Made by a program: the position numbers and the translations under genes. DNA of 47,956 bases from Klebsiella phage VLCpiS13a: sequence record NC_071152.1; one strand, written 5' to 3'. The notes below the pieces were generated by a model. It had not been told where the DNA came from. It saw only the letters and a program-made list of their open reading frames with translations, and made no database searches. Shown in pieces: positions 397 through 40,998 of the stretch (positions are counted from its first letter, which is position 1; each line of letters begins with the position of its first letter).

Positions 397-635
397 AACC
401 AATGATGAATGATGATGGGCTGCTGGAGTGTCCGTTTTGCGGAGGAATTTCAGCATATAAAGACTACTGCCACCACAGAAGTATGCATAACGTGGTCTGC
501 GGCGATTGTGGTTGCGGCACCGATGAGTGGATTTATGAGGAAGGTGCTGTTAAATCATGGAATACCAGAAATGGCCACCTCTATACCGCTGACGACTACA
601 AACAAGATGCACTGGAGCGCGCAAATGGACTTTAA
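393..635 (+). CDS. Cys-rich zinc-finger small protein
   Basis: SD AAGGTGG before ATG 393; CPFCGG..CHH..CGDCGCG motif; start overlaps upstream stop. Confidence 0.5.
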   Translation: MKPMMNDDGLLECPFCGGISAYKDYCHHRSMHNVVCGDCGCGTDEWIYEEGAVKSWNTRNGHLYTADDYKQDALERANGL

Positions 636-1095
636 AACGCAAATACTCACGGTGATAGAGCGCTGCGGAGGCGCAACCAATGCCATGATTCGCAATCAGA
701 CCGGAATCGCTGACCGTGCACGGATAAATCTCTATCTTCTCGAAATGGAGAGTATGGGATTTATTATTAAAGAGGAAGCAATTAGTCATGGTCGTCGCTG
801 CTTCAAGTATTTCCTTAATCCCGATAACACTGCGCTAGATTTAGCAATTCAGACCTATCTTGAGGCGAACCCTGGGCGCAAGAGCAAGCAGATAGCGGAG
901 GCTGTCGACGTCAATTACACCATCCTCAAGGCACGCATGCGCTATCTGGCAAGCATTGGTCAGGTTGACCGTGAAATGCTTCCCGGCGGAGCGTGGAAGT
1001 ATTACTGGCAGGAGATCATCCCGTTTGGCATGAGCCGTAACAGGATGATGTTTGAAAAGCTGCTTGCCGGGGCGCGCAAGTCATGTGGGCGGTAA
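625..1095 (+). CDS. putative winged-helix DNA-binding protein
   Basis: Protein-like C-terminal 156 aa of ORF 409..1095; ATG 625 overlaps stop of 393..635; alternative starts 607 or 409. Confidence 0.4.
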   Translation: MDFKTQILTVIERCGGATNAMIRNQTGIADRARINLYLLEMESMGFIIKEEAISHGRRCFKYFLNPDNTALDLAIQTYLEANPGRKSKQIAEAVDVNYTILKARMRYLASIGQVDREMLPGGAWKYYWQEIIPFGMSRNRMMFEKLLAGARKSCGR

Positions 1096-4095: not shown

Positions 4096-5184
4096 ATGGA
4101 AAAGATTATCTTTACGAAAGGCCTGATCACCAACTCGCAGGTGGTTAAAGAGCAATGGCGTCACCTGACTGTTGACCGCAAGGTTTTCATCAATGGTGAA
4201 AATGCTCTGGCGAAAGAATACGGCGTGAACGCCACCGCGCTGGTAACGAAAGACTACTGGCGCGAAGTGGATGACGTGACCACCCGCGTATTCCGCAACG
4301 AGTCCGGCATGGACATGATGGCCGACCTGATGACGCTGGCGACCAACATCAATATCGGTAAGACCGTGGCAATTAGCCGCATGGCATCCGATGCTGGTAA
4401 GGTTGTGCGCACCATCTCCGGTCAGGAGCCTGAAGACCTCGATAAAACCCGCTATTCCTACAGCGGCGATGTAATCCCGATCTTCAAAACCGGCTATGGC
4501 CGTGAGTGGCGTGAGCTGATGGGCATGCAATCTGAAGGTTTCGACCCGCTGATTGATGACCAGGAGAGCACCACCTTCAACCTGCGCGCAGACATGGCGG
4601 ATTATCTGCTGGTCGGCGATGCAAGCCTGAACGTGAACGGCGTTTATACTGCTTACGGCATCACCAACCACCCGAACACCGTGCAGCTTAACCTGAGCGC
4701 TTCCGGCACTGGTGCGCTGAACATCGACCTGCAAACTGCAACCCCTGATGAAATCGTTGAGTTCTTCAACCAAGATTTCCAGGCGGTTCTGGATGCACAG
4801 AACGTGTTCGAGCCGGTTACTCTGTGGGTTTCTCCGTCTGTGCGTCGATCCTTCAGCCGTCCGTACTCCAACGCGGCAGGCTTCAAAGGCGGCACCATTG
4901 AGGATTACATCCTCGCATTCGGCAAGACCGGCAACGTTGGCCGCATCGCGTCTATCGGCACCAACTTCAAACTGACCGGGAACCATTTCGTCGGCTATGT
5001 GAAGAATGCGCTGTATATCCGCCCTCGCGTCGCTCAGCCGGTATCTACCTATGCAGAGCCGCGTACCACGCCTCACGCTAACTTTAACTTCCTGACCTGG
5101 GCTGCTATGGGCCTGCAAATCCGTAAGGATTTCAATGGTCGAAGCAAAGTTTTCAACGGCTACGGCACGCAAACCGCGCTGTAA
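4096..5184 (+). CDS. major capsid protein
   Basis: 362 aa, strong host-like codon bias, SD AAGGAG, followed by strong terminator; position after scaffold. Confidence 0.7.
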   Translation: MEKIIFTKGLITNSQVVKEQWRHLTVDRKVFINGENALAKEYGVNATALVTKDYWREVDDVTTRVFRNESGMDMMADLMTLATNINIGKTVAISRMASDAGKVVRTISGQEPEDLDKTRYSYSGDVIPIFKTGYGREWRELMGMQSEGFDPLIDDQESTTFNLRADMADYLLVGDASLNVNGVYTAYGITNHPNTVQLNLSASGTGALNIDLQTATPDEIVEFFNQDFQAVLDAQNVFEPVTLWVSPSVRRSFSRPYSNAAGFKGGTIEDYILAFGKTGNVGRIASIGTNFKLTGNHFVGYVKNALYIRPRVAQPVSTYAEPRTTPHANFNFLTWAAMGLQIRKDFNGRSKVFNGYGTQTAL

Positions 5185-5189
5185 AAATA

Positions 5190-5210
5190 AAGGGGCGAAA
5201 GCCCCTTTTA
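5190..5210 (+). terminator. rho-independent terminator
   Basis: AGGGGCGAAAGCCCCT hairpin + TTTT. Confidence 0.7.
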
Positions 5211-5421: not shown

Positions 5422-5425
5422 AATA

Positions 5426-5450
5426 AACCCGCAAACAAGCGGGTTTTTTA
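5426..5450 (+). terminator. rho-independent terminator
   Basis: AACCCGC-loop-GCGGGTT + T6. Confidence 0.7.
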
Positions 5451-6287: not shown

Positions 6288-6314
6288 AAAAGCCCCAGAA
6301 GGGGCTTTGTTTAC
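6288..6314. terminator. bidirectional rho-independent terminator
   Basis: AAAGCCCC-AGAA-GGGGCTTT with A-run upstream and T-run downstream. Confidence 0.7.
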
Positions 6315-6562
6315 TTATGGTCGCGAAGTTGAATGAGATTATCAATCAGCCTCTGAATTGAGGCGTTGTCTTTAAATGTGATGTAAATTTCAGACTCATC
6401 AGTATCATTAGTTTCATCACCTGGAATGCCGCGATTTATGGTATTCGCAAAGGCTATTAACTTTTCACCATTGCAATATCCAGCTTTAATGCCAACATAA
6501 CCACCTCCAAGGCGGGCAACTTTTGAGCCATCGCCCTGAGTAAAAACGCCATTCTTTTTCAT
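6311..6562 (-). CDS. hypothetical protein (cassette gene 5)
   Basis: ATG 6562 two nt after stop of clamp-like gene; 83 aa. Confidence 0.5.
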   Translation of the reverse strand: MKKNGVFTQGDGSKVARLGGGYVGIKAGYCNGEKLIAFANTINRGIPGDETNDTDESEIYITFKDNASIQRLIDNLIQLRDHK

Positions 6563-6564
6563 CA

Positions 6565-7101
6565 CTAAATCCTCATTGGCATAACGATAACTTTTGCAGT
6601 CTCGCCAGTAGGCGCACTGATGTTTGCGACGGCGGCGTTGATATAGCCGTTCAGTTCGAAGAGAACGCTTTCAAATTTCGGGTTAAACAACTTCGCCAGC
6701 TTCTCAACATCTGCCAGATATTTGGCATTAAAGCCAATCTGTTCTGCTGGCGAAGTCTTCTTCGGGATGACGCGATCAATATCGGGGTAATTGCCATCAA
6801 TTTCAGAACAAATGCCCGCACCAACCATCGCCTCATGTTCGTCATGGTAGGTGACAATGTTTGTTTCAGTGTCCAGTAACGCATAGGAATAACGCTTAGT
6901 TGGCGACTTGCTTACTGACACGATGACGTTACTTTTTATCTTGTTTTCGTGCTTACTGGCAATCATGGCGCGATGACCGTCAGTAGCGGCAACGCGACCA
7001 TCAGGCATAAAGCAGATACCGTTCAGGTAGTAACGTACATCCTGTTTGGCCTGGAACATCAAAGCGCCTTCGAGTAATAGCTTACTAATCTTCAATTTCA
7101 T
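6565..7101 (-). CDS. DnaN (beta sliding clamp)-like truncated protein: domain II plus C-terminal half of domain III
   Basis: Motifs shared with E. coli DnaN recalled from memory: QDVRYYLNG, ATDGHR, DGxxPDxxRV(I/L)PK, IGFNxxY(L/V)xDV, C-terminal VMPMR(I/L); MKLKIS start at 7101 with GGTGAAAAA SD (ORF extends to 7143). Confidence 0.7.
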   Translation of the reverse strand: MKLKISKLLLEGALMFQAKQDVRYYLNGICFMPDGRVAATDGHRAMIASKHENKIKSNVIVSVSKSPTKRYSYALLDTETNIVTYHDEHEAMVGAGICSEIDGNYPDIDRVIPKKTSPAEQIGFNAKYLADVEKLAKLFNPKFESVLFELNGYINAAVANISAPTGETAKVIVMPMRI

Positions 7102-7274
7102 TTTTTCACCTTCACCATGTGTTGTTTTGCAACCTTCAGGCATTCATCGAAAATCTTGCCTTTCTTTTCACTCTGGTTGCGCCTGTAGTGGATAATTGCA
7201 GCCTCTATGGCCGCGTTGTCGATGCCTGGCAGTTTTTCGCGCAGGTTTTTCTCTATGAATTTTTCTGGTGTCAT
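7098..7274 (-). CDS. hypothetical small protein (58 aa)
   Basis: ATGA overlaps at both ends couple it between the Cys4 gene and the clamp-like gene. Confidence 0.4.
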   Translation of the reverse strand: MTPEKFIEKNLREKLPGIDNAAIEAAIIHYRRNQSEKKGKIFDECLKVAKQHMVKVKK

Positions 7275-7621
7275 AAATCATTCTTATCCAGTAATCCAAG
7301 GTTATACATCTTTTTAGCATACTTGTGGTCGACCAACTCTCCACCGACCTTGTTTGCAGCATCGCTAACCTTACTTCCAGGCTCAAACCATCCGGTTTCC
7401 TTTTCCCTATCGGTTAACTCCCTTTTGTCAAGGTAGCTTATTTCAGATGCCTTGCATGATTCGCAATAATATGGCCCGCACTGGACAAGACCGACGCCAA
7501 CGTCGACAAAATCAGCAAAGCAGTGCTCATACCCGCAGTATGGGCATATTGCTTCGTCTGGCTCCCATATGCTTTTGTGATTAGTGCTAAATTCATGTCT
7601 ACCAATCCCAGTGCTCATCAC
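7271..7621 (-). CDS. Cys4 zinc-binding protein
   Basis: CPYCGYEHC ... CGPYYCESC; ATGA overlap with upstream gene. Confidence 0.5.
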   Translation of the reverse strand: MMSTGIGRHEFSTNHKSIWEPDEAICPYCGYEHCFADFVDVGVGLVQCGPYYCESCKASEISYLDKRELTDREKETGWFEPGSKVSDAANKVGGELVDHKYAKKMYNLGLLDKNDL

Positions 7622-7818
7622 AGCTTCTCCAGAATAGCCAGCACTTCACTCAACTCAGCAGATGGAAGGCGCAAAAACTCCTCGGTCTCCTGTGCCACAT
7701 GACCCTCAGCAACCACCATATGATCTGCTTCTTTCAGCAACTGAATAAGGCGGTCAATCGGCTTTGCCTTGTCTTCTGCTGGGTTATCGACATTAAACAT
7801 CTTCATCACCTCTAACAT
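7618..7818 (-). CDS. acidic small protein (first gene of cassette)
   Basis: SD GAGGTGA before ATG 7818; 66 aa, Glu/Asp rich. Confidence 0.5.
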   Translation of the reverse strand: MLEVMKMFNVDNPAEDKAKPIDRLIQLLKEADHMVVAEGHVAQETEEFLRLPSAELSEVLAILEKL

Positions 7819-7840
7819 TTATTATTGTTTCTACATCATC

Positions 7841-7869
7841 ACTATAGCGACACCCTCAATCTACGTCAA
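7841..7869 (-). promoter_or_regulatory. sigma70-type promoter TTGACG-N17-TATAGT with conserved TAGATTGAG spacer element
   Basis: Reverse complement of 7841-7869 reads TTGACGTAGATTGAGGGTGTCGCTATAGT; about 20 nt upstream of SD/ATG 7818. Confidence 0.5.
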
Positions 7870-7876
7870 CACTTTA

Positions 7877-7885
7877 TGATAAAAT
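7877..7885 (+). promoter_or_regulatory. extended -10 promoter candidate TGATAAAAT
   Basis: TGnTAAAAT; same element precedes genes at 44904 and 47641. Confidence 0.3.
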
Positions 7886-10002: not shown

Positions 10003-10079
10003 TGGTTCCCGCGACAGGATTCGAACCTGTAATCATCAGATTATGAGTCGGGTGCTTTAACCAGTTAAGCTAAACGGGA
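10003..10079 (-). tRNA. tRNA-Met-like (anticodon CAT)
   Basis: Folds with 6-bp acceptor stem, perfect D-arm GCTT/AAGC, loop CTCATAA, T-arm ACAGG-TTCGAAT-CCTGT, encoded CCA; anticodon stem has 2 mismatches. Confidence 0.65.
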
Positions 10080-10082
10080 ATT

Positions 10083-10160
10083 TGGTGTACCATACTGGAT
10101 TCGAACCAGCGACCCACGGCTTGGAAGGCCGTTGCTACTATCCTGCTGAGATAATGGTGC
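10083..10160 (-). tRNA. tRNA-Gly-like (anticodon TCC), noncanonical D-arm
   Basis: Anticodon arm ACGGC-CTTCCAA-GCCGT, T-arm GCTGG-TTCGAAT-CCAGT, acceptor GCACCAT/ATGGTAC (1 mismatch), CCA encoded; D-stem poorly paired. Confidence 0.5.
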
Positions 10161-10538
10161 GTTGTGTTGTGGTGGCTGAAGTCGCGTTGTTGCCGTCCCC
10201 ATATAACCCGGCTCAAGGGTTTTGATGTCCCCGATTCATCAGCACTGTCATCTTGTACTTCACCACAACGGAAAGAGCACTGCTGCAACAATGTTGGATT
10301 TGGTATGCTAAGCCAGTCAACATTCAATGCTCTTACCTGTTGTGTGCCCATTATTAATCACACCGGGCCAGTGCGCCAGATTCTGTTACAGGGAACTGGA
10401 ATACCCCGCTGATTTTAGGCTATTACGCCGCCATCAGGAAACGATCTTCGTTTGCGTTTATCTTTGTGGTCAGTTTCTAAAAACCCGCAAAGTCGCCACG
10501 AAAACTATCTGACATTTAATCTACACCACCAATCAAAA

Positions 10539-10547
10539 CCTGTCAAC
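10539..10547 (+). promoter_or_regulatory. extended -10 promoter TGATATAAT (late, tail operon)
   Basis: TGnTATAAT 45 nt upstream of ATG 10592; shares CCTGTCAA upstream element with 12372-12393. Confidence 0.45.
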
Positions 10548-10591
10548 ATGATATAATGCGATTGTTTAGCTAAACACAGAGGATTCTAAAC

Positions 10592-11348: not shown

Positions 11349-11378
11349 GAAAACCCCCGAAAGGGGGTTTATTTTTTC
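11349..11378. terminator. bidirectional rho-independent terminator
   Basis: AAACCCCC-GAAA-GGGGGTTT + T-run. Confidence 0.7.
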
Positions 11379-11752
11379 AGCAATGAAGATACGCGGATAC
11401 TTGAAATGGCATCAATGGTCATCATCATCCTCCTCGCTAATCGCAGTATCGAGTTGTCGGCGCAACATACACAGCGCGCCAGCGGCATAAACTGTGAAAC
11501 CATTCCGTCGAATATCTGGCGGTTTAATTTATTATCAATGCGCGGCCTGATTGCAGACCAGCACGCGCGGATTGATTTGTTAACCTGACGACCTTCAATC
11601 ATCGCCAGTTTTGCAGCCAACTCTACAGTAACAAGCGCATCGAGATATTGCTCGCAGGCGTAGCGGCTATCATCGCCAGATGATGTTTTCACGCCTGTAA
11701 ATTCGCCATAAGAATGAGCGCCATCATCTTCACCTACAGATTCAATATCCAT
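11369..11752 (-). CDS. hypothetical protein (cassette gene 4)
   Basis: 127 aa; ATG overlaps upstream TAA. Confidence 0.45.
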   Translation of the reverse strand: MDIESVGEDDGAHSYGEFTGVKTSSGDDSRYACEQYLDALVTVELAAKLAMIEGRQVNKSIRACWSAIRPRIDNKLNRQIFDGMVSQFMPLARCVCCADNSILRLARRMMMTIDAISSIRVSSLLKK

Positions 11753-11904
11753 TAAGCTCTCCTGGTTTTATTCTTTATACCCCACAAAATCAGATTGGCG
11801 ATAAACTCAGCGCGTCGCAGGTGAATTGCTATCGCATAGTTTATGTCGATGCGCTGACCTGCATATGCAGATATCACATCTTCATCGTCTTTGTTAACTG
11901 GCAT
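11752..11904 (-). CDS. hypothetical 50-aa protein
   Basis: Small ORF coupled between 99-aa and 127-aa genes. Confidence 0.3.
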   Translation of the reverse strand: MPVNKDDEDVISAYAGQRIDINYAIAIHLRRAEFIANLILWGIKNKTRRA

Positions 11905-12193
11905 TTTTGGACTCCTGCATCATAAGGAAGGCAATCATGGCAGCGCGGAGTGGGTTTTCATCGCATGAAGAAACATCCTCAAGATAATCTTCTGCCATCC
12001 ATTTAGTGTATAGGATGGGATTGATACGAATCCTATTTTCCACAATAATCGGCCATGCATCTGCGGGGTTTTGGCATGGATTCCACTTACCAGAATGTAT
12101 TTCATGCACAAATGATTTGGAAGTCCAATTGTTAGCCTTTGCTACTTTGCAGCTAATCTCAAAATCACTCATCTTAGTGTAATCAGTGCTCAT
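11894..12193 (-). CDS. hypothetical Trp-rich protein
   Basis: 99 aa; motif KWNPCQNPADAWPII. Confidence 0.5.
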   Translation of the reverse strand: MSTDYTKMSDFEISCKVAKANNWTSKSFVHEIHSGKWNPCQNPADAWPIIVENRIRINPILYTKWMAEDYLEDVSSCDENPLRAAMIAFLMMQESKNAS

Positions 12194-12324: not shown

Positions 12325-12353
12325 ATGTCAAACCCTCAATCACCTTATGCTTT

Positions 12354-12367
12354 CAATCTACGTCAGT
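12354..12367 (-). promoter_or_regulatory. conserved TGACGTAGATTGA promoter element (leftward)
   Basis: Reverse complement CTGACGTAGATTGA upstream of leftward cassette 12324-11369. Confidence 0.4.
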
Positions 12368-12384
12368 TTTGCGCCACCTGTCAA

Positions 12385-12393
12385 TGGTATAAT
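12385..12393 (+). promoter_or_regulatory. extended -10 promoter TGGTATAAT (late, tail chaperone/TMP)
   Basis: TGnTATAAT 29 nt upstream of ATG 12422. Confidence 0.45.
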
Positions 12394-16434: not shown

Positions 16435-16460
16435 AACCCCGCTATTGCGGGGTTATCTTT
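16435..16460. terminator. rho-independent terminator
   Basis: AACCCCGC-TATT-GCGGGGTT + TATCTTT. Confidence 0.6.
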
Positions 16461-16813
16461 CCTATCTCCATCATTAGATCAGGAGTCCTAACCACCCACT
16501 CTATGCACCCATCAAAACCAGAAAGACCAGCCTTTTTAAATTTTCTGTGAAAATGTGACTCTATTTCAGCAGCATTAAATCCAGTTGTTTTTATAATCTT
16601 AATGACATCAAATTGAAATGGGGTATTTCTTGTTAATCTCTTTATTCTTTCAATTTTGTTATGCGTGATACCAATTTTTACCACGCCAAGAGATACAGAC
16701 TCAAGGAAGTAAACATATGCTTTTTTTTGTTGTTCTTTTGAATCCGTATTCGGCGCAATCATGACAACCCTTTCCAAGCATGTGATCTGATGTGAATTGC
16801 AAAAATTCACCAT
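16442..16813 (-). CDS. homing-endonuclease C-terminal part: T5orf172 (GIY-YIG superfamily)-like domain
   Basis: AYVYFLESVSLGVVKIGITHNKIERIKRL motif; overlaps upstream ORF in +1 frame. Confidence 0.55.
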   Translation of the reverse strand: MVNFCNSHQITCLERVVMIAPNTDSKEQQKKAYVYFLESVSLGVVKIGITHNKIERIKRLTRNTPFQFDVIKIIKTTGFNAAEIESHFHRKFKKAGLSGFDGCIEWVVRTPDLMMEIGKITPQ

Positions 16814-17321
16814 GTATGCTGCATAATATTTTAGCCTTCACAGAAGAATTAACAAATGATGATTCATCATACTGATAAAGAAACGAATGAACCTCATTTG
16901 ATTTTTTGACAAAGATGTCAAATGTCAGCCTTCTGTTCTTACTGCATGATGGGCATCCTACTCCTGACATATGATGACTCCTCCTTTGCATGAAGACGCC
17001 ATGCTCCCTGCATATTATTTTAATATATTCTGAAGACACCTCATCATTAACAAGGGAGTAATCATATTTGTATTTATGAATCTTGTTAAACTTATCAATT
17101 AATGAGGATAATGGTGTTTTCTTAGACTCTCTGGCGCACAACCTGCACCCTCCAACCAAGTGGGCGTCAGGCCTTTGCTTGAATTCTCCGTGCTTTTTGC
17201 AGGTTATTGTTATTTTATATTTGGATAGCACATAAACAGTCTTTGAGTAATCATACTTGTCGCCATGAACTTTTTTAGCCCTGGCGATAAACTCTGCCGT
17301 AGTAAGTGGCTTGCGCATCAT
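16701..17321 (-). CDS. homing-endonuclease N-terminal part: three tandem Cys/His zinc-finger-like repeats
   Basis: Repeats CKKHGEFKQRPDAHLVGGCRLCA / CREHGVFMQRRSHHMSGVGCPSCS / CSIHGEFLQFTSDHMLGKGCHDCA. Confidence 0.55.
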   Translation of the reverse strand: MMRKPLTTAEFIARAKKVHGDKYDYSKTVYVLSKYKITITCKKHGEFKQRPDAHLVGGCRLCARESKKTPLSSLIDKFNKIHKYKYDYSLVNDEVSSEYIKIICREHGVFMQRRSHHMSGVGCPSCSKNRRLTFDIFVKKSNEVHSFLYQYDESSFVNSSVKAKILCSIHGEFLQFTSDHMLGKGCHDCAEYGFKRTTKKSICLLP

Positions 17322-25049: not shown

Positions 25050-25547
25050 TCAAAACGGAATATCATCATCCATCGGCGGCTCGTTTGCTGGTGGTTTTTG
25101 TATGTTTGATGGTTGCTGAGGTTTACCCCATCCCGTTTGCTGATTGCTTCCTGACTGTTGCCGCTGCTGTGATTGTTGGTTTCCATTATCACTTGATTTA
25201 CCACCAATCATTTGCATAACACCGTTCATCGGCTGCAAGACAATTTCAGTGGTGTACTTTTCAACGCCGCTCTGGTCTGTCCATTTACGGGTGCGCAATT
25301 TACCTTCAACGTACACCTGAGAGCCTTTGCGCAGATATTCGCCAGCTACCTCTGCCAGCTTTCCGAAGATAACCACGCGATGCCATTCAGTTTGCTCTTT
25401 CTTTTCCCCTGTCGCTTTATCGTTCCACTGCTCTGATGTTGCCAAAGACAGATTGCACACGGCGCCACCAGATGGCATATATTTAACTTCAGGGTCTTGC
25501 CCAAGAGTGCCGAGAATGATGACTTTATTGATTCCACGAGATGCCAT
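25050..25547 (-). CDS. ssb: single-stranded DNA-binding protein
   Basis: OB-fold SSB motifs, Gly/Gln-rich linker and C-terminal DDDIPF tail. Confidence 0.95.
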
Positions 25548-25556
25548 AATTTACCC

Positions 25557-26597
25557 TTAAAAGTTTTCGATGTTTTGCTGAGATGTTGATGGCTTCTCTT
25601 CGGTTGCAGATGGCGAAGGCGCATCTGCTTTCTGGAGTTTGGCCGGGTTGAAATCGTCCTGCGGTGTGATAGTTACCGCTGCTGGCGATTCGTCATTAAT
25701 GAATGATTCAATGCGCTCATACTCCTCTGCTGATGCCTTGAGTGTTGACCATATTTCCCTGATTTTCTTTTTAACTGAATCTGGAATATTTGCAGCCTCA
25801 GCATTCAGTGCCGCAACTCCGCGTGAAGCGGTCATTTGCAACTTTGAGCGCCAATGATCAAACTCTTCATCAATCTTAACGCCAGACTCAACCCATTTAA
25901 TTAAACCTCGCCCATGCGCTTCACCAATATACCCATGATGCTGGCTGTCGCGACCTGATTCAAAAAATATCGGGCGCAGTTCTTCTGGTAGCTTGGTAAA
26001 ATCCTGAATCTTGCCATTGTCATACATCATCATGCTGACGGTCATTTCAAACATGAAATCCTTCTCACATACCGGGTGCAGACCAAGTGGCATAGGGTCT
26101 TTTGGGTTGCTGAAGTCGGTTTTATTGCGCGCACGCAGGCAGACGATGATATGCATATTGCTTTGTAATAATGCACTCATGAACTTCTTATGCTCAGCCT
26201 TGGCGCGCTTCCAGTCTGCCATTTTTTTTCCTTGTAGCAGCGGCTGATCGGCTATATCTGAGCAGCCGCCTTCCCCTTCCCATTCATGCGAACCGGAATC
26301 GATAACCAGCACTTTAACGCCTGCTTTTTGAAACTCTTCGATTGCCTGGCGATAACGGGCAGGACTAAATGGCGCATACAAATCAGCATGCAGGAATTTT
26401 CCATCAAGTATATTTGAATAAAGACGTCCGCGACCGTTTTCCGTGTCCAGAAAACCGATTTCAGACGGTGAGTCAACCATGCCGCGCGCAAGTTTGAGTG
26501 CGCTGTATGTCTTACCACTACCAGACTGGCCGGAGATGCCAATAACTACGCGAGAACCTGAACGTTCAGCAGGCTTGATATCAAGAATTCCCATCAC
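25557..26597 (-). CDS. Sak4-like recombination ATPase (AAA_24 family) with C-terminal extension
   Basis: Walker A GISGQSGSGKT then FLDTENG; adjacent to SSB and exonuclease. Confidence 0.7.
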   Translation of the reverse strand: MMGILDIKPAERSGSRVVIGISGQSGSGKTYSALKLARGMVDSPSEIGFLDTENGRGRLYSNILDGKFLHADLYAPFSPARYRQAIEEFQKAGVKVLVIDSGSHEWEGEGGCSDIADQPLLQGKKMADWKRAKAEHKKFMSALLQSNMHIIVCLRARNKTDFSNPKDPMPLGLHPVCEKDFMFEMTVSMMMYDNGKIQDFTKLPEELRPIFFESGRDSQHHGYIGEAHGRGLIKWVESGVKIDEEFDHWRSKLQMTASRGVAALNAEAANIPDSVKKKIREIWSTLKASAEEYERIESFINDESPAAVTITPQDDFNPAKLQKADAPSPSATEEKPSTSQQNIENF

Positions 26598-26617
26598 TTC
26601 GCCTCATTTACTATAAA

Positions 26618-27574
26618 TTACAGGTTAAATTGCTTTTTGAACCATTCCGGCGTTTCCATTTCGATTACCGGGTTTCCCATTGAATAGCCAGGCCATGAAT
26701 TGGCTTTTTTGCACGCCTTATAGATTTCCATTGCGCTTTGCAGCTGAATTCTTCCAATGCGAAGTTGCTCATCAGTAAGGCGAATAAGCGCAGGGATGAA
26801 TGGCGATTTTTTCTCCTGCACCAGAAGGTTAACCGAGCGCGGAGCATGACCGTAAGCCTCGACAAACATATCGTGTTGCATCGCCATCTTCATAAAGTAT
26901 CCCAGCCGCGCAGCATGGCGGAAAAACTCATCAGGCTTGGCGCTCACCGCCGTTTTGTAGTCGATAATGTCGCCGCCGCGCGTAAGGCAGTCAAATCGCA
27001 CCTTGGATGGCTCGCCAAGCAAATCACCGAGAATAGACACCTCAGAGTAAGCACCAGCCAGCAAACTGCCGTAATAGCTGTTTGCGTGGATTACAGCTCG
27101 CATCTGCATGATGGCGTCATAGTCATTTCCTTCAAGCATATGCTTGCCAGTGGCGGTCTTCTCTGCTTCTTCACGAATAACATCATAAATCAGCACTGCC
27201 TCTCCAGTGGACTGAATAATTTTAATCACTTCGGCTTTAGTCTTACCTGAAAGACCTTTGATGCCGCGCTCTTTCGCCCATGAGTTCATGTCGGAAGCAG
27301 TTACCAGCACCGTGCAATTACCATCTTTGTCTCTTGGAAAATCTTCGACAACTGGCATACGGGCATATTCTGCTTCGAATCGCTCAGGCTCAAGCAGTGC
27401 GGTATGGCTACCAGTACCAAATATTAGAGCCTTTGACTGCTCATCTTCTTCGTCTTTGTAGCGCCACGCTGCGGGGCATCTGTCATACAGATTCCATAAT
27501 CCAGAGCCGTTGATGTGCTCTGTGTCAGCGTGATACTGGTTATTGCTGAGTTCGTTGTTTAAATAAACTTTCAT
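26618..27574 (-). CDS. PD-(D/E)XK recombination exonuclease (RecE/Cas4-like)
   Basis: 318 aa; RFDCL ... DIIDYKT catalytic motif; position in recombination module. Confidence 0.7.
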   Translation of the reverse strand: MKVYLNNELSNNQYHADTEHINGSGLWNLYDRCPAAWRYKDEEDEQSKALIFGTGSHTALLEPERFEAEYARMPVVEDFPRDKDGNCTVLVTASDMNSWAKERGIKGLSGKTKAEVIKIIQSTGEAVLIYDVIREEAEKTATGKHMLEGNDYDAIMQMRAVIHANSYYGSLLAGAYSEVSILGDLLGEPSKVRFDCLTRGGDIIDYKTAVSAKPDEFFRHAARLGYFMKMAMQHDMFVEAYGHAPRSVNLLVQEKKSPFIPALIRLTDEQLRIGRIQLQSAMEIYKACKKANSWPGYSMGNPVIEMETPEWFKKQFNL

Positions 27575-27598
27575 CCATCACCTCTTTTTATTGTTAAA

Positions 27599-27613
27599 TC
27601 AATCTACATCAAG
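27599..27613 (-). promoter_or_regulatory. variant conserved promoter element (TTGATGTAGATTGA) for leftward recombination operon
   Basis: Reverse complement TTGATG-N16/17-TAAAAA then GAGGTGA SD and ATG 27574. Confidence 0.35.
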
Positions 27614-27618
27614 CCACG

Positions 27619-28035
27619 TCATTCATCAAGCCCAAAATAGAATAACGTCGCTCTTTTTAACTCCTCAATACCATAAGCAATGGCTCCAAAGTGACCCTCT
27701 GCGATGGCGCACTCAAGAACCTCAATCTGTGATGGCGATACATTTGATTTTGTCTTGTCACGGCGCTTCAGTTCAATTAGGCCGCATTTATGATTAACAC
27801 CGTTGGTGAGTATCAAATTATCGCTTACGCCGCTCCTTACACCCATTTTGCGGCGTTTCTCGACGAATTGAGGACCGCTCTTTGTGCCTGTCTCATTAGG
27901 AACATGGAACCACAGAACATCAGGAAATCGGTATTGCATCCAAAGGCCATAGGCCATCTGGTCGGTCTCTTCTTTAGGGCATTCTCCACGATAACCGCTG
28001 TCAAATACCCATATCCCGCTGTCAAGCTGCTTCAA
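27619..28035 (-). CDS. VRR-NUC domain nuclease
   Basis: 138 aa; GVSDNLIL ... GLIELKR PD-(D/E)XK-type motif. Confidence 0.75.
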   Translation of the reverse strand: MKQLDSGIWVFDSGYRGECPKEETDQMAYGLWMQYRFPDVLWFHVPNETGTKSGPQFVEKRRKMGVRSGVSDNLILTNGVNHKCGLIELKRRDKTKSNVSPSQIEVLECAIAEGHFGAIAYGIEELKRATLFYFGLDE

Positions 28036-29959
28036 TTTGTTCTCCTATGAAATCCTTGCGGTGGATGATATCGCGGCCTTTATCGTTAAAACGATGCGTG
28101 ATGCGTTTAGGTGCGCGGATTAAACCGGCGTAATGCATGAAAGTCTTAGCATCATGGCAGTCCATCATTTTCTTCAGCATGGACTTGTCTTCAAGATGCG
28201 GAAGCAGAGCCTTCATTTTAAACATGTCGCGCAGGTGCTTTGGCTTGCCTCCGAACGGATAAAACACCTCATTTGCCCAGCCGGTCTTTCCATCAGCTTT
28301 TACCACCAGGTAACGATAAAGAACCCCCTCAGCGTCTTTGGTCAACTCGACTTTAAAATCTTGTACATCTGTCCATTCTTTATCGGTATAAGCACGCTCA
28401 TTAAGCGCCGCGTTAGGGTCGCGTAAAACGTGATCGCATTGACGGCAATAACGAGCTGTTGGGTCATTTTTTGTGCCGCAACCATCATCAAAAATACGGA
28501 TACCATGCTTGTCGAAACCACAGCGAATGAAGCTGAAAAACTCTTCGCAACGACCATCCTGCGACGTTGAATCTTTACCGATGCAACGCCGTGCATATGG
28601 GCTGTTCATCGTCTGGCATTTAGGGCATGGAACCTGCTCTCCGCTGCGTTTTGCGCGCTGTGCTTCTGCTTCTTCCAGAATTGGGTCTTCATACAGCTGA
28701 CCAAGTTCAAACATCGTACCAGAGAAATCAAGGACCAGATGGTCTTCTTTATGATACCCGGCGTCAATGTGCTCTTTTTTAAGGAGCCGCATACCGCGAC
28801 CTAATAGCTGCACAAGAAGGGTAAGTGACATTATTTTCCTTAGCACGACTGAGCAATCCCAAAGAGGGATGTTAACGCCAGTAGTTAATGCAGCAACCTG
28901 AAGTGTGTATTTTATTTTTCCTGTATATGCGTCTTTAAGCGCCTTTCTCCTGGCTTTCATGCCCATATCTTCTGTCACTATGGCATAACTTCCCTCAGGA
29001 AGACGTTTGGCCACATCTCTGCAATGTCTCTTTCCGGCACATGTAATTAGAACCCCGTTTCGATTAGAAGTAAGCGCGATAACTTTTGCCATGATTTTAT
29101 CGAGCTTGTCATCTTGTTTGAGAATGCTATTTTCCATTTGTTTCAGCTGCTCAGCTGTAAAGTCTTGAGTACCGTCAACATCAGAACCATGAAAATCTGA
29201 CAGGTCGTATTGCAAATCATCCGTATCATTTAGACCAAAGATTGTTGGAACAACGAATCCGCGATCAACCATGTACTTAGTATCAATGTTAATTATCTCG
29301 TGCTTCCAGTAAGCGCCCTTCATTGATTCAGTCCCGCGGAATGGACTTCCAGTGAAAGCGATTGTGATCATGTCGTGTCCATACTTCGCCTTGCACCGTC
29401 GATTTAGCTCAGTGAGTATCACACCATATTGTGTTGTTGGATTATCACTAACAACATCCTGCCACGGAACTTGGTGACCTTCATCGCACAGGCAGAATCT
29501 AGGAGTGAAATCTGACAGGTCTGATTTTTTGATTACTTCACCTGATTCATCTTTTTTGTCAAAAAGAGAATTTATAATTGTTCCTTCTGTGGCGCAAATT
29601 ATTGGATATGCAGTACTCTTTCGCCCTAGAGACGCGCTATACAGAGAATTTTTAACACCAAAGTTCCAGAGCTCACTTGCATCCTGGTCAATAATTTCAG
29701 ACTGTCTGGCAATGACAAGACCATCCCATCCCATATCTTGAAATCTGCTGCACAGCATTGAAATCATCACGGTTTTACCGCTAGAAACAGAAGCAGTAAC
29801 ATAGCTTGGTTTAGGGTCTTTACCAAAGTTGCGGATTACTTCTGCGCACTTGGCATACACCAGCCACTGGTAATCATATGGCTCTATGAGCCCCGGCTTG
29901 ATAGATTGCTTTAACTTTTCAATGTCAAGCTCTGCAATCATTTTGTCTATTTTATGCAT
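28022..29959 (-). CDS. SF2 ATP-dependent DNA helicase with C-terminal zinc-ribbon region
   Basis: Motif I SVSSGKT, motif II DEGH, later helicase motifs; CPKCQT..C and CRQCDHV zinc ribbons. Confidence 0.85.
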   Translation of the reverse strand: MHKIDKMIAELDIEKLKQSIKPGLIEPYDYQWLVYAKCAEVIRNFGKDPKPSYVTASVSSGKTVMISMLCSRFQDMGWDGLVIARQSEIIDQDASELWNFGVKNSLYSASLGRKSTAYPIICATEGTIINSLFDKKDESGEVIKKSDLSDFTPRFCLCDEGHQVPWQDVVSDNPTTQYGVILTELNRRCKAKYGHDMITIAFTGSPFRGTESMKGAYWKHEIINIDTKYMVDRGFVVPTIFGLNDTDDLQYDLSDFHGSDVDGTQDFTAEQLKQMENSILKQDDKLDKIMAKVIALTSNRNGVLITCAGKRHCRDVAKRLPEGSYAIVTEDMGMKARRKALKDAYTGKIKYTLQVAALTTGVNIPLWDCSVVLRKIMSLTLLVQLLGRGMRLLKKEHIDAGYHKEDHLVLDFSGTMFELGQLYEDPILEEAEAQRAKRSGEQVPCPKCQTMNSPYARRCIGKDSTSQDGRCEEFFSFIRCGFDKHGIRIFDDGCGTKNDPTARYCRQCDHVLRDPNAALNERAYTDKEWTDVQDFKVELTKDAEGVLYRYLVVKADGKTGWANEVFYPFGGKPKHLRDMFKMKALLPHLEDKSMLKKMMDCHDAKTFMHYAGLIRAPKRITHRFNDKGRDIIHRKDFIGEQIEAA

Positions 29960-29962
29960 AGC

Positions 29963-30529
29963 TCACCCTAAATTAACAAACTCTTTATGATTAACCACCA
30001 TGAATTCACGAATCGCCTTTTCTGCTGATTCTATGGTATTAAACAAGCCAAGATGAATCCTCTTCTTGTTTATTGATGTCTGCGCTCTCCATTTGTTGCA
30101 TCTTTTATCGAAATGCACACCTTTTACACCAGATTTATTTGTTGATTTCTTTTTCATGTTGAACATGTTTTGTTGATGACTGGAAATTCTAAGGTTACAA
30201 ATTCGATTGTCTGACTTATCACCATTTATATGGTCTATTTCATGCCCATCTATGTCTTCTCCATAAACATAAATCCATGCCAATCTATGCGCGAAAAACA
30301 GCCTTGATCCAACCCTTATTTTTATGTACCCACGTGAGTTTTTATATCCAGCAATATCTCCTGGCTTGACATTTCTTGAGTTGCCATTAATCCACTTAAA
30401 AACCCCAGTGTCAGGGTTGTAATCAAGAGCCTCCATAAGCCTTTCCTGTGAAACCTTTAGCTTTTCTTTCTTCCCTGAAGTTTTTAAGTCTGCATCCTGA
30501 GCAGCAGAACTCAGCTCTTGATGTTCCAT
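29963..30529 (-). CDS. HNH homing endonuclease with AP2 DNA-binding domain
   Basis: HNH_3 motif YIKIRVGSRLFFAHRLAWIYVYGED..EIDHINGDKSDNRICNLR and AP2-like GVHFDKRCNKWRAQTSINKKRIHLG. Confidence 0.85.
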   Translation of the reverse strand: MEHQELSSAAQDADLKTSGKKEKLKVSQERLMEALDYNPDTGVFKWINGNSRNVKPGDIAGYKNSRGYIKIRVGSRLFFAHRLAWIYVYGEDIDGHEIDHINGDKSDNRICNLRISSHQQNMFNMKKKSTNKSGVKGVHFDKRCNKWRAQTSINKKRIHLGLFNTIESAEKAIREFMVVNHKEFVNLG

Positions 30530-30587
30530 GAAATTCTCTCCCGCATTGTTTGCACTTCTTCAATGTGATAGCCATTTGTTACCCTCA

Positions 30588-30616
30588 ATATTAAACCCAG
30601 TTGCGTTTCATGTCAA
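30588..30616 (-). promoter_or_regulatory. consensus sigma70 promoter TTGACA-N17-TAATAT (leftward, helicase operon)
   Basis: Reverse complement of 30588-30616. Confidence 0.5.
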
Positions 30617-30641
30617 GAACGCTTGCGCGTTTCATGCTAGT

Positions 30642-30670
30642 AAATTACAATGAATCTACATCATAGTCAA
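30642..30670 (-). promoter_or_regulatory. promoter TTGACT-N17-TAATTT carrying TGATGTAGATTC element
   Basis: Reverse complement of 30642-30670; tandem with promoter at 30588. Confidence 0.45.
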
Positions 30671-30682
30671 CTGGAAGAAATT

Positions 30683-31552
30683 ATGCGATACGACTGGAAG
30701 GATATAGAGCCTTTAATGGTTGGCAACTGGCAGGCCGCTATCATGTCGATAGTCAATGTCGATATGCGAATTTTTAATGGCAAGCATCAGCCATGCCCGA
30801 GCTGCGCTGGCACGGACAGGTTCCGCTTTGATGACCATTTAGACTACAAAGGTGACGGCGGCGCCATCTGCAACCAGTGCGGAAACGGCAGCGGAATCAC
30901 CTGGTTAATGAAGCTGTCAGGAATGACGTTTCCAGAGTCAATAGAGGCACTGGCCGGATTTCTGAACATGCATCCACGAGAAAAACTTGAGGCGATTAGA
31001 AAACAACTACCTAAGGTCAACCATGCTTCTGACTATCTGACAGCGGCAGAAGTTGAGGCAATCATGAAAAAAGCAGGCGACGACACCATAACCGGTAAAA
31101 CTGGTGAACTGGTAGCGATACCGCTCTATATGGCAGGCACCATGACGCCATGCAATGTGGCTTTTCTGGCAGATGATGAAAGCGTGTTATTTCGCGCGGG
31201 TTTCAGCTATGAGTACACTCGCGGAAGACTTACGCGAGGCGCTGTTACACCGATTGGTGAAAAAACAGAGTGGACATACCTTGTATCCAATTACTTTGAC
31301 GCATGGCGAGCGCATCGGCTTACTGGCGCTCATGTCTGGTGTTGCTGGTCGCCTGAAAACATGTGGGAAGTTGTTCGCAACGTGAGCGATGAGCAGCGCA
31401 CTAAACTGCGTTGCATCATTAATAATAATTTTGATGAGGTATGTGCCGCCGAGAATGCAGACCTGCCGATACTGATCACTGATGATGGTCAGGATATCCG
31501 CTATAGCAGCGCCATCAGAAAGAGGCTGTATAAACCAGAAGAACTATTTTAG
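30683..31552 (+). CDS. DNA primase (zinc-binding N-terminus)
   Basis: CPSCAGTDRFRFDD ... CNQCG zinc motif; position in replication module; ATG 30683 preferred over upstream ATG 30650 that overlaps promoter motif. Confidence 0.55.
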   Translation: MRYDWKDIEPLMVGNWQAAIMSIVNVDMRIFNGKHQPCPSCAGTDRFRFDDHLDYKGDGGAICNQCGNGSGITWLMKLSGMTFPESIEALAGFLNMHPREKLEAIRKQLPKVNHASDYLTAAEVEAIMKKAGDDTITGKTGELVAIPLYMAGTMTPCNVAFLADDESVLFRAGFSYEYTRGRLTRGAVTPIGEKTEWTYLVSNYFDAWRAHRLTGAHVWCCWSPENMWEVVRNVSDEQRTKLRCIINNNFDEVCAAENADLPILITDDGQDIRYSSAIRKRLYKPEELF

Positions 31553-31556
31553 GCGC

Positions 31557-31594
31557 TAAAAAAACAAACCCTCCATCAGGAGGGTTTGTTTTTA
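31557..31594. terminator. bidirectional rho-independent terminator
   Basis: AAAAAAACAAACCCTCC-ATCA-GGAGGGTTTGTTTTT. Confidence 0.75.
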
Positions 31595-31822
31595 TTCTAT
31601 ACTAATTAAAACGTAACCAGGAAGATATGAGCTTACATCAGCGATATGAACAATTAATTTATCAACCCTCTCTCCTGTGTAATCACCATCCCATTCATAA
31701 AGCGCAAGGATGTCTCCAACCTTAAAATTACGATCGTTATTCCTTAGTTCAGCCCTCTTTAAACCATCAACAACAGGCCAAAAGTATTCAGGTAATATTT
31801 TAAGTTCATGTACTTTGCTCAT
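31592..31822 (-). CDS. ASCH/PUA-like small protein
   Basis: 76 aa, ATGA overlap with upstream gene. Confidence 0.5.
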   Translation of the reverse strand: MSKVHELKILPEYFWPVVDGLKRAELRNNDRNFKVGDILALYEWDGDYTGERVDKLIVHIADVSSYLPGYVLISIE

Positions 31823-33378
31823 TATTTCAGTCTCGGATTCAGGTAAACGGTGTTATTAAGGAATACGCAATATCCATCCTCTTCAAGAGACGGCAAAACG
31901 TTTGACTTGAGTCTGTCATAAATATGCGGTATGCCTTTGAATGGTCTTACATTTTTCAGTGAATCGTACAGCCATTTTACCGTGACATTCGTTTTTCCTT
32001 TTTGCGCAGCTGTGCGCAATTTTTCGGCAACAACGTCAATTTCCGATTTCTCGCCAGCGTATCCATTTGACTCAACGGCATCGGTAAATGTTTTTGTCAA
32101 TGCATCATAAACGCTTATGGCGCGGCTTATATGTTCCTCACCAATAATTTTTGAGCGACGCCCGCCATCGCACCAGTTTTCAGCGGCATGGAATATTGCC
32201 GAAAGCCTGATTATCTGCTTGTCAGCCTTACCCATGGCGCCACGAAGCAAAACGTGATCCCATTTTCCACCTGGCAGGAAATTCTTTTCCCACTGGTTTC
32301 GTAAAAGTCCAATCATACGCTGCGATTCTTTAGCGAGGGAGAAAACAACCTTCTCAGAAGCCACAAGGTTATGCACAAATCTGGCATATTCTGCCTTTAG
32401 TTCTTTAGGCATTGGCTTACTTACCGGGCAATCATTTTCAACATCCCAATGCTCACGATAACCCAACATCGACTGTTCACGAAGCATCAGGAATCGCTCT
32501 GACAACCCGTTACCCCTGTCGCCAGCCGACAGAATGGCATCAATACTTTCATCCTGTGCAATGACGCTGATGTTACCAAGAACATAGCCAGATGAAACAC
32601 CACGACCAACGCGAGCTGAACCAACAAACCCACCGTCCCAGCCTTTCAGGATGACCTCTGCGTTAGACTTTCCGCCATCCTTGCCATATGAAAGGCCAAG
32701 ACAGGTATTTAAAACGCTTGCCTCATCACTTATCAGGTTGAAAAAACCACCCTCATGAATTGCCTGGTGCTGCACCGCTTCTGGCGTCGCATCGGTTAAC
32801 GGGTAGGTAATGGTGTAAAGACTTTCCAGTTTTTCCTTCTCTTTCGCAATATCGTCCCCGATGATGGCTTTCGCGTTATGATTCGTCGCTTCCTTGTAAG
32901 CCTTCATCAGGTCTTCAATGCGAATGTTTATTTTTACAATTTCCTTCTCCATCTTTTTTGACAGGTTGTCATACTCAATTTTTATCGGGTTCATGTGCAT
33001 TGAGTTGATAGCTGTCTTGCCAGCTGATGGCGGCTGCGACGTCACCACATACAAGGAAACGGGTAACTCAGAGCCATAGTATTCAACGCTAAAGTTTCTG
33101 GTCATGGCACTTGCTACGCAGCCAAGCAGATGCATGAATGACGTGCTAACAGGGAATTGCACAGCCCTTGCCGCTGCCACTGAGTAGCGAGTTATCAGGT
33201 CTTTCCTGTTGTCACTGGTAAGCTCTATCTCTGAGTATGTTACATCATTCTCCTGACCTTCCTTGATTTCTGGCCACATGTTATGGCTTGGTGTCATGCC
33301 ATGATGAATGGCTACGCGCGCCGCAGAGGTGTGCGCTTCTCTTGCCTGATTGAAGATTTCCTGTGCTGTAATCATCAT
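31822..33378 (-). CDS. replication-module protein (DUF3987-like, P-loop-like PSAGKT motif)
   Basis: 518 aa, in replication module next to primase. Confidence 0.45.
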   Translation of the reverse strand: MMITAQEIFNQAREAHTSAARVAIHHGMTPSHNMWPEIKEGQENDVTYSEIELTSDNRKDLITRYSVAAARAVQFPVSTSFMHLLGCVASAMTRNFSVEYYGSELPVSLYVVTSQPPSAGKTAINSMHMNPIKIEYDNLSKKMEKEIVKINIRIEDLMKAYKEATNHNAKAIIGDDIAKEKEKLESLYTITYPLTDATPEAVQHQAIHEGGFFNLISDEASVLNTCLGLSYGKDGGKSNAEVILKGWDGGFVGSARVGRGVSSGYVLGNISVIAQDESIDAILSAGDRGNGLSERFLMLREQSMLGYREHWDVENDCPVSKPMPKELKAEYARFVHNLVASEKVVFSLAKESQRMIGLLRNQWEKNFLPGGKWDHVLLRGAMGKADKQIIRLSAIFHAAENWCDGGRRSKIIGEEHISRAISVYDALTKTFTDAVESNGYAGEKSEIDVVAEKLRTAAQKGKTNVTVKWLYDSLKNVRPFKGIPHIYDRLKSNVLPSLEEDGYCVFLNNTVYLNPRLK

Positions 33379-33611
33379 GAAATCCTTTTCACGTAAATGG
33401 TCTCTTTGTCAGGATATCCGGATTTAGTGGAAAATTTTAAATCAGGGTTCCTGCGCATGAAGTAGTTTATGGCGTTCCTTAAACTCACAACGCCGCCAAA
33501 CTTTCTTGCATCATAAGTTACCATCTCCCCAACAGCGATAGCAGCAAGCGAAGACAGCGCTGCATTCTTCTTTCCGTACTTATCAAGATACACATCAACC
33601 CCCTTCATCAA
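33375..33611 (-). CDS. hypothetical protein
   Basis: 78 aa, SD GAAGGGGG, first gene of leftward operon; ATGA overlap with next gene. Confidence 0.4.
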   Translation of the reverse strand: MMKGVDVYLDKYGKKNAALSSLAAIAVGEMVTYDARKFGGVVSLRNAINYFMRRNPDLKFSTKSGYPDKETIYVKRIS

Positions 33612-33671
33612 ACAAATCTATGTTTAATCATATCATAAACATTGAATCATGCAATCACAAACCTTCATTGT

Positions 33672-33700
33672 GGGGCATATGGGGCATCCTTGGGGAAGGG
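33672..33700 (+). repeat. G-tract cluster GGGGcatatGGGGcatccttGGGGaaGGG (G-quadruplex-capable)
   Basis: Four G-runs with loops of 5, 7 and 2 nt. Confidence 0.5.
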
Positions 33701-33734
33701 TATCTTCCCCAAAATTTATCACTCTAAGTATATG

Positions 33735-33840
33735 TAATATAATAATAATAGTAGTAGTTGGGTTAATGGGTAATATTATTATTCATATTATAGGTATTAT
33801 TTTAACAATAAATTAACAAATTGGCGGCGTTTTTATATAT
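33735..33840. other. AT-rich tract (candidate DNA unwinding element / origin)
   Basis: >85 percent A+T over ~100 bp with AATAATAATAGTAGTAG reiterations, flanked by G/C-tract repeats. Confidence 0.35.
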
Positions 33841-33947
33841 ACAAGGGGATGGGTATCAAAATTGCCCCACTTCCCCAAAGATGTTAAATCCCTTTAGTGA
33901 CAAGGCTTGCGCGTGGGGAAGCACTATGCCCCAGCACCTTACCCACA

Positions 33948-33964
33948 GGGGTAAAATTTACCCC
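33948..33964. repeat. inverted repeat GGGGTAAA-A-TTTACCCC
   Basis: Perfect 8-bp arms, 25 bp upstream of promoter at 33990. Confidence 0.5.
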
Positions 33965-33989
33965 AGGCGGATTTATTTTCACCATCATA

Positions 33990-34018
33990 TTGACGTAGAT
34001 TGAGCGCCATCGTATAGT
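33990..34018 (+). promoter_or_regulatory. early promoter TTGACG-N17-TATAGT (near-duplicate of 7841-7869 module)
   Basis: TTGACGTAGATTGAGCGCCATCGTATAGT; SD GAGAGGTGA and ATG 34050 downstream. Confidence 0.55.
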
Positions 34019-34049
34019 TACCACATCAACAACAGAGAGGTGATGGAGA

Positions 34050-34447: not shown

Positions 34448-34462
34448 ACCGGTTTAGCAACG

Positions 34463-34741: not shown

Positions 34742-34747
34742 GGATTT

Positions 34748-34909: not shown

Positions 34910-34915
34910 GGGTTT

Positions 34916-36730: not shown

Positions 36731-36769
36731 CCTCATGCGACATGGTGTAGAATCTGATACAATATCAAA

Positions 36770-39106: not shown

Positions 39107-39132
39107 AAGATTTCTCCGAGAGGTTTCATTTT

Positions 39133-40989: not shown

Positions 40990-40998
40990 TCATGCTAT

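Follow-up and report, generated by a model that had tools for sequence, protein, structure and literature searches.

The sequence analyzed here (the window; 47,956 nt, NC_071152.1) corresponds to the near-complete genome, approximately 48 kb in length, of a Roufvirus-like Klebsiella siphophage, as determined by BLAST against phage records. Piecewise identities of 85-95% were obtained by BLAST with the phages vB_KpS_GP-1 (GP-1), VLCpiS13c and KP591P1 and with Aeromonas phage pIS4-A, which is the type member of the genus Roufvirus. The capsid genes are approximately 76% identical to those of phages of Salmonella and E. coli from the sister genus Skatevirus. According to a gene map based on the list of open reading frames (ORFs) and on the annotation of relatives, long rightward virion and lysis operons are broken up by short leftward cassettes, and the map further contains a leftward replication/recombination block (25050-33611) and a set of rightward small early genes (34050-36705). 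Non-coding DNA accounts for 7% of the window. An Rfam search of the window yielded two tRNAs only, and an integrase is absent from the annotation of the relatives.

Strong and often bidirectional intrinsic terminators are located at positions 5189-5208, 5425-5446, 6289-6308, 11351-11370, 16435-16454 and 31553-31591. They end the leftward cassettes and divide them from the rightward operons. With a putative promoter, genes and a terminator of its own, each cassette is thus self-contained.

A non-coding gap of 438 bp (33612-34049) divides the leftward helicase unit from the early genes on its right. It contains G-rich repeats (GGGGAAGGGTATC / GGGGATGGGTATC, two copies of CTTCCCCAAA, and TGGGGCATA in inverted form) with a very A+T-rich core between them, and it looks like a replication origin. 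A pair of overlapping leftward ORFs (16442-17321, minus strand) separates the tape-measure gene from the tail gene that follows. They are not preceded by the motif described below, are missing at this spot in GP-1, and resemble an ORF that is sited elsewhere in phage Skate, beside the portal gene; this pair is probably a mobile insertion.

Motif sequence, enrichment and sites

The core of the motif is the 11-mer TGAYGTAGATT and its fullest form is the 14-mer TTGACGTAGATTGA; it is asymmetric and not palindromic. No other 10- to 12-mer is found at least five times in the window. Allowing up to two mismatches, the 14-mer gave seven matches as compared to 0.31 expected, a number reached by none of 100 shuffled sequences. 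Three of these matches are exact (7856-7869 and 44852-44865 on the minus strand, 33990-34003 on the plus strand), two contain one mismatch (12353-12366 and 27599-27612, both minus strand) and two contain two mismatches (39148-39161 and 47573-47586, both minus strand). Weaker copies are located at 10516-10529, 30651-30664, 39131-39144 and 44828-44841 on the minus strand and at 47601-47614 on the plus strand. The general core TGNNGTAGAWW yielded 15 matches in the window (1.33 expected), the strict form TGAYGTAGATT eight (0.04 expected). These counts bear out the initial annotation, which had described a conserved promoter element at eight or more intergenic sites. Its coordinates agree with the motif search to within 1-2 nt, except for a partial copy given as 10511-10520, which is approximately 7 nt off and actually occupies 10518-10528.

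The copies are not randomly placed. Thirteen of the 15 core copies fall into the non-coding 7% of the window, and a TG located 3-4 nt 5' of GTAGAww is present in 13 of 13 intergenic versus 2 of 10 coding occurrences (Fisher p = 9e-5). All but one of the 15 copies (the exception, at 23226 on the plus strand, lies within the tail-fibre gene) are located upstream of, and co-oriented with, a gene or tRNA unit, and 11 of the 15 are on the minus strand, heading leftward units. Both the predominance of leftward units and the reuse of the element as a promoter-linked feature had been proposed from the initial reading of the sequence, and both stand; almost all leftward or early units begin with a copy. 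Intergenic copies are all found at the heads of units and none inside units or at their ends. Accessory cassettes, replication/recombination genes and the tRNAs are headed by the motif, and so are the block of small early genes and the unit with the terminase gene. TAGATT is near-invariant among the copies. When the copies were aligned on the motif, no flanking column was conserved throughout, so that the motif unit itself is the common denominator. The individual sites are as follows (-35 and -10 denote putative hexamers).

P1a, 7856-7869, minus strand: TTGACGTAGATTGA as -35 (TTGACG 7864-7869), 17-nt spacer, TATAGT 7841-7846; heads leftward cassette 6311-7818
P1b, 7828-7838, minus strand: second copy, TGATGTAGAAA, directly 3' of TATAGT; 27 nt to the likely ATG at 7800
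P2, 10518-10528, minus strand: TGGTGTAGATT as -10; -35 TTGACA 10541-10546, 17-nt spacer
P3, 12353-12366, minus strand: CTGACGTAGATTGA as -10; -35 TTGACA 12379-12384, 18-nt spacer; heads cassette 11369-12193
P4, 27599-27612, minus strand: TTGATGTAGATTGA as -10; -35 TTGATG 27624-27629, 17-nt spacer
P5, 30653-30663, minus strand: TGATGTAGATT in the first codons of the plus-strand primase gene; upstream of leftward unit 27619-30529
P6, 33990-34003, plus strand: TTGACGTAGATTGA as -35, 17-nt spacer, TATAGT 34013-34018; heads rightward early block 34050-36705
Pter, 36743-36753, plus strand: TGGTGTAGAAT, directly after a terminator; 53 nt to 36807 (unit with the large terminase gene)
P7a and P7b, 39133-39161, minus strand: two copies 17 nt apart; TTGACG of P7a as -35 for TAGATT of P7b (TTGACGTAGATTctagcaTGGCGTAGATT)
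P8a, 44852-44865, minus strand: TTGACGTAGATTGA; TTGACG-17-GATGAT, a weak pair
P8b, 44830-44840, minus strand: TGATGTAGATA; 21 nt to ATG 44808
P9, 47575-47586, minus strand: TTGACGTAGATT; without -35; 30 nt to ATG 47544
P9r, 47602-47612, plus strand: TGTTGTAGATT; 28 nt to ATG 47641

Several sites have recognizable counterparts in other phages. At P1a, TATAGT and the motif are kept across the two genera and the intervening spacer varies; P1b reads TGAYGTAGAAA or TGSCGTAGAAA in every relative examined. P2 heads a leftward tRNA-Gly/tRNA-Met unit (10003-10160), and the Skatevirus arrangement is identical. In pIS4-A and KP591P1 the orthologue of P3 has a distance of 26 nt from TAGATT to ATG, and GenBank record PP454752 carries a 'host promoter' annotation at the spot orthologous to P3. 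TAGATT is likewise 26 nt from the ATG of the exonuclease gene (27574) at P4 and from ATG 39106 at P7b. A separate canonical promoter sequence (TTGACA-17-TAATAT, 30616-30588) is found near P5. P6 is preceded by an A+T-rich, UP-like tract, and its Skatevirus orthologue reads TTGACGTAGATA-N-TGATGTAGATT, i.e., TTGACG-17-TAGATT. Pter is identical in Skate, and the Skatevirus counterpart of P8b is inverted and faces the lysis genes. P9 and P9r are arranged back to back in a divergent region of 83 bp that would drive two units and holds no other plausible -10.

This last region (47569-47612) also contains a palindrome, TTGACG-N6-CGTCAA, and a block, TTAGTCAATACT, that is conserved across genera. On its plus strand a TTGACG-18-AATACT pair is present, the spacer of which holds the minus-strand motif; opposing promoters in this arrangement would therefore exclude each other.

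Putative promoter geometry and a proposed second promoter class

Putative core promoter elements were located by a scan that was independent of the motif. A -35-like hexamer, a spacer of 16-18 nt and a -10 of the form TAnnnT were found at eight of 14 intergenic copies. In four of these the motif takes the place of the -35 (P1a and P6, TTGACG-17-TATAGT; P7a, TTGACG-17-TAGATT; P8a, weak), and in four others that of the -10, with a -35 located 17-18 nt upstream (P2, P3, P4, and P7b, which borrows TTGACG from P7a). Neither a -35 nor a -10 partner was found at the remaining six copies (P1b, P5, Pter, P8b, P9 and P9r). The initial claim of an invariable 17-nt distance between TTGACG and a -10-like hexamer thus holds for the copies at 7856, 33990 and 39148 and weakly for that at 44852, but not for those at 12353, 27599, 30651 and 47573. 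Copies are accordingly located at -35, at -10, or just past the -10 (+1 to +12), and paired copies are 17, 24 or 30 nt apart. At six sites, the copy nearest to the gene is 21-30 nt from the start codon, which is the distance expected of a -10 followed by a short leader. Counted from TAGATT, every copy of the motif has its TG at -17/-16 and not at -15/-14, the position of TG in an extended -10. A UP- or discriminator-like element, as initially considered, does not fit, since the motif occupies neither of these positions.

Other readings of the element were tried and rejected. The opposite strand offers no usable hexamers. A lambda CII-type site (direct tetramer repeat with a 10-bp period) is not matched, as TTGA-N6-TTGA is present in five of 15 copies and positions 13-14 are weakly conserved. 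FNR box, MetJ boxes, DnaA box, IHF site and marbox do not fit in spacing or sequence.

A different sequence, TGnTAwAAT, occurs 12 times in the genome (3.7 expected). The intergenic extended -10 sites, of this or a related sequence, are as follows.

2181-2189, 10549-10557, 12385-12393, 40993-41001 and 44874-44882, plus strand: extended -10 TGnTAwAAT, before virion/lysis operons
7877-7885, plus strand: extended -10 TGnTAwAAT (TGATAAAAT), divergent from P1a and directed toward the head-tail genes; forms the A/T block within 7841-7885, the span first singled out
39144-39152, plus strand: extended -10 TGCTAGAAT, before a virion/lysis operon

An extended -10 element of this kind, without a clear -35, precedes every virion or lysis operon, and several are arranged back to back with leftward motif promoters. 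Upstream of P1a and P8a, a conserved A/T block can be explained in this way, as the extended -10 of a late promoter that points in the opposite direction. The intergenic DNA of Bas81 has TGnTAtAAT at orthologous sites. On sequence criteria, the virion and lysis operons thus have a class of putative promoters that differs from the motif class and is conserved in Skatevirus.

Conservation across the clade and candidate readers

Eight genomes were compared: the window, four Roufvirus relatives and three Skatevirus genomes, i.e., Bas81 (E. coli), Skate (Salmonella) and the mutant seszw_300S (MZ375354). The 11-mer is present at corresponding promoter positions in the four Roufvirus relatives and the three Skatevirus genomes, whereas spacers and downstream genes differ. 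Each of the eight genomes holds 12-16 core copies (about 1.1 expected) and 6-9 strict copies (at most 0.08 expected). In alignments between the genera the spacers vary, in contrast to the 11-mer, the -35 and, at P1, the -10 TATAGT, all of which are kept. The conservation exceeds what a -35 hexamer needs, as had been pointed out initially. The genes downstream of the motif sites are mostly not common to Roufvirus and Skatevirus, and the motif is unchanged among phages of Klebsiella, Salmonella and E. coli. At P3, P9r, P5 and P6, homology with close relatives (L001-L004) is interrupted precisely where the motif lies; in one example, identity drops from 0.96-0.99 upstream to 0.60 downstream. The motif therefore delimits exchangeable cassettes.

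IMG/VR was scanned for the exact 14-mer, and 15 loci with multiple or unexplained copies were checked by BLAST. Five of these 15 match the Roufvirus/Skatevirus clade. The additional copies in non-matching loci (seven inspected) look like chance occurrences, with the exception of two contigs of approximately 21-24 kb and 38% GC (L008, 6958-6990; L067, 470-502), in which AATCTACATCAA-N7-TTGACGTAGATT forms an inverted pair of 12-mers about 220 bp downstream of a serine recombinase gene, in an element unrelated to the phage clade. This pair is probably a palindromic protein site that matches the motif by coincidence. Searches of the full-text literature for the motif strings returned unrelated primers only, and no promoter, transcription start site or RNA-seq analysis was found in the Roufvirus/Skatevirus literature; the motif is not described in the literature searched.

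Twenty-seven small proteins of the window were scanned against Pfam and PHROG. No sigma-like, AsiA/MotA or polymerase-like protein was found among them. The only recognizable DNA-binding candidate is the product of 625-1095 (plus strand), annotated as 'MarR-like'. Its AlphaFold model (mean pLDDT 84.6) shows two winged-helix domains in tandem and a C-terminal helix, and the best fold matches are the tandem winged-helix proteins RPC62, TFIIIC, SelB and ScpB, not MarR dimers. Homologs are confined to the Roufvirus/Skatevirus clade (149 phage records). The Skatevirus homolog is 33% identical at an unchanged motif; the recognition helix of the second domain is fairly conserved between the genera and that of the first domain is not. 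The viable, genome-reduced seszw_300S (PMC9825161) is devoid of the winged-helix gene and has kept 14 motif copies. Motif promoters include those of essential replication genes. The protein, which the initial annotation had named as a regulator to be assayed, can therefore not be a required activator of the motif promoters; as a dispensable repressor it is a formally possible candidate, and as modeled it could in principle read an asymmetric site.

In the first ORF of the P1 cassette (7618-7818, minus strand), about 50 residues match a ParB/KorB-like 'DNA binding protein' of Skatevirus relatives, and the rest of this 0.8-kb gene is gone from the window phage. A ParB/KorB-like global repressor was rejected as the reader, because only this remnant of the gene is present in the window and the motif is not palindromic. 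The T1 'transcriptional regulator' ST23 was rejected as a homolog of the tandem winged-helix protein, since the two show no similarity.

Interpretation and comparison with known systems

Among the closest precedents for the motif are the asymmetric 22-bp intergenic repeats of the T1/Stevie group (Roberts et al. 2004; Shaw et al. 2015, PMC4319613). As in the window, these are virulent enterobacterial siphophages with approximately 16-20 lineage-specific asymmetric copies, mostly intergenic and oriented with transcription. The T1 repeat ATAGCAYKWWTTGYTAAAA has 22 matches in T1 (L128; e.g., 1450-1468, 4344-4362 and 36444-36462) and none in the window at up to three mismatches; conversely, the window motif has no match in T1. 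The T1 repeat is located at a fixed distance of approximately 19 nt upstream of -10-like hexamers, often preceded by TGn, and is thus promoter-linked, too. However, the T1 element is upstream of the -10, with TTGYTA 22 nt away, whereas the window element itself contains the -10 or the -35.

By analogy, the motif also belongs with the stoperators of mycobacteriophage L5, the other close precedent. Brown and colleagues reportedly described in 1997 the L5 repressor sites as a Pleft operator plus stoperators. In L5/Bxb1 an asymmetric 13-bp site occurs in many copies oriented to transcription, one of them over the -35 of an early promoter, and is read by a monomer with two DNA-binding domains (PMC9283540). 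The window motif likewise is asymmetric, occurs in multiple copies oriented with transcription and overlaps an early promoter. In contrast, L5 and Bxb1 are temperate, have an identified immunity repressor, and carry most of their sites within or between genes, where they halt elongation; the relatives of the window phage lack an annotated integrase, and its sites are at unit heads only.

Like an extended -10 (TGnTATAAT), the motif joins a -10 hexamer to a short conserved upstream extension and might work without a -35, but its TG is at -17/-16 and its G at -13, as compared to TG at -15/-14 in the extended -10. True TGn extended -10 sequences precede the late operons of the window phage. Promoter classes recognized by the host polymerase are also known from T4 middle promoters (MotA box plus -10) and from Thermus phage P23-45 (-35/-10 versus extended -10), and two sequence classes would permit temporal switching in the window phage as they do there. 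T4 middle promoters differ in that the MotA box is at -30 and requires MotA/AsiA, whereas the window motif is at -35 or -10.

Taking these observations together, we somewhat favor the reading that the 11-mer is the signature of the non-late promoters of the clade, with the sigma-70 RNA polymerase of the host as its most likely reader. Sequence anatomy, enrichment, placement, orientation and conservation across genera all point to it. TAGATT would serve as the -10 hexamer (TAnnnT) and TGAYG as a conserved 5-bp extension directly 5' of it, and a T in front of TGACG would provide a -35 hexamer (TTGACG) from the same bases. One unit could thus act as -10, whether or not TTGACA or TTGACG precedes it, or provide the -35 for another -10 that follows after 17 nt, giving rise to stacked promoters. 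Transcription would start at the motif sites, and the motif class and the TGnTAwAAT class would allow temporal discrimination and are presumably separated in time. Since the motif is the same in phages that infect three host genera, its reader is presumably conserved as well, and the host sigma-70 polymerase is the obvious candidate; the largely unshared downstream genes and the 33% identity of the only DNA-binding candidate point the same way.

The conserved G-13, the TG at -17/-16 and the inner bases of the -10 exceed the needs of sigma-70, which makes it likely that an additional class-specific factor or contact reads the motif. Ordinary -10 boxes drift at positions 3-5, and we know of no established sigma-70 (region 3.0) contact that explains TG at -17/-16 and G at -13. 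The T1 repeat is wholly different, although T1 shares its host species with Bas81; the extra information in the motif is thus not set by the polymerase alone.

A serious minority possibility is that the 11- to 14-mer is a shared operator, i.e., an asymmetric site of a phage or host regulator that is superimposed on core promoter elements and turns the non-late class on or off in unison. The motif carries far more information than a -10 or -35 box does, and against a pure promoter reading its copies occupy three positions relative to the core elements and are often paired, as is typical of operators. An inverted motif pair at the junction of the Skatevirus lysis cassette and the T1-like precedent of lineage-specific promoter-linked repeats point in the same direction, as does the predicted tandem winged-helix fold of 625-1095, a type able to read an asymmetric site as a monomer, with its fairly conserved second recognition helix. 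However, seszw_300S is viable without that gene, the recognition helix of the first domain differs between the genera, and the ParB/KorB-like gene is a remnant. Moreover, unlike stoperators, the copies are found only at unit heads and always point with transcription, and at P4 and P9 the motif is the only plausible -10 for essential units. An operator overlapping the -35 and the spacer had been the initial proposal; its link to promoters and the excess conservation are retained here, whereas its uniform geometry is not, since TAGATT is placed as a -10 in at least four putative promoters.

It is improbable that another form of polymerase (an alternative host sigma factor, or sigma-70 remodeled as by AsiA/MotA of T4) reads TGAYGTAGATT as a single element independent of a -35. 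Such a reader would account for P9, P9r, P5, P8b and Pter, which lack a usable -35 yet head units that need a promoter, and the unit is compact and directional. In contrast, P2, P3, P4, P7 and P1a/P6 show textbook -35/-10 geometry, no sigma, AsiA or MotA family match was obtained with the 27 window proteins, and Roufvirus and Skatevirus differ in their early genes. RpoN (-24/-12), RpoE, RpoS, RpoH and FliA promoters differ from the motif in spacing or sequence. Very improbable is a role of the repeats chiefly as recombination joints for cassette swaps, or as paralogous copies without a common reader: the homology breaks at P3, P9r, P5 and P6 suit it, but a cassette begins at its promoter, so that junctions would fall there in any case, 11 bp is too short for efficient homologous exchange, and the per-position conservation across genera, strict orientation and fixed -35/-10/ATG geometry indicate selection for promoters.

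A bolder reading, which is tentative and rather unlikely, would make TGAYG-TAGATT a self-sufficient, -35-independent module in which T-17, G-16, G-13 and G-10 are read by a novel polymerase contact or a small factor, forming with TGnTAwAAT a two-class temporal program throughout the clade.

Phages of the Roufvirus/Skatevirus type are under development against Klebsiella, Salmonella and E. coli, and their gene regulation is unannotated. In this clade of approximately 200 genomes (eight examined), one 11-bp word predicts the start of nearly every non-structural unit and also delimits swappable accessory cassettes. It offers a handle on early versus late expression in a small virulent siphophage without a polymerase of its own. 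Should the unit function independently of a -35, it would represent a new type of -10 extension in the promoter grammar of enterobacteria and would provide compact, portable promoters for phage engineering.
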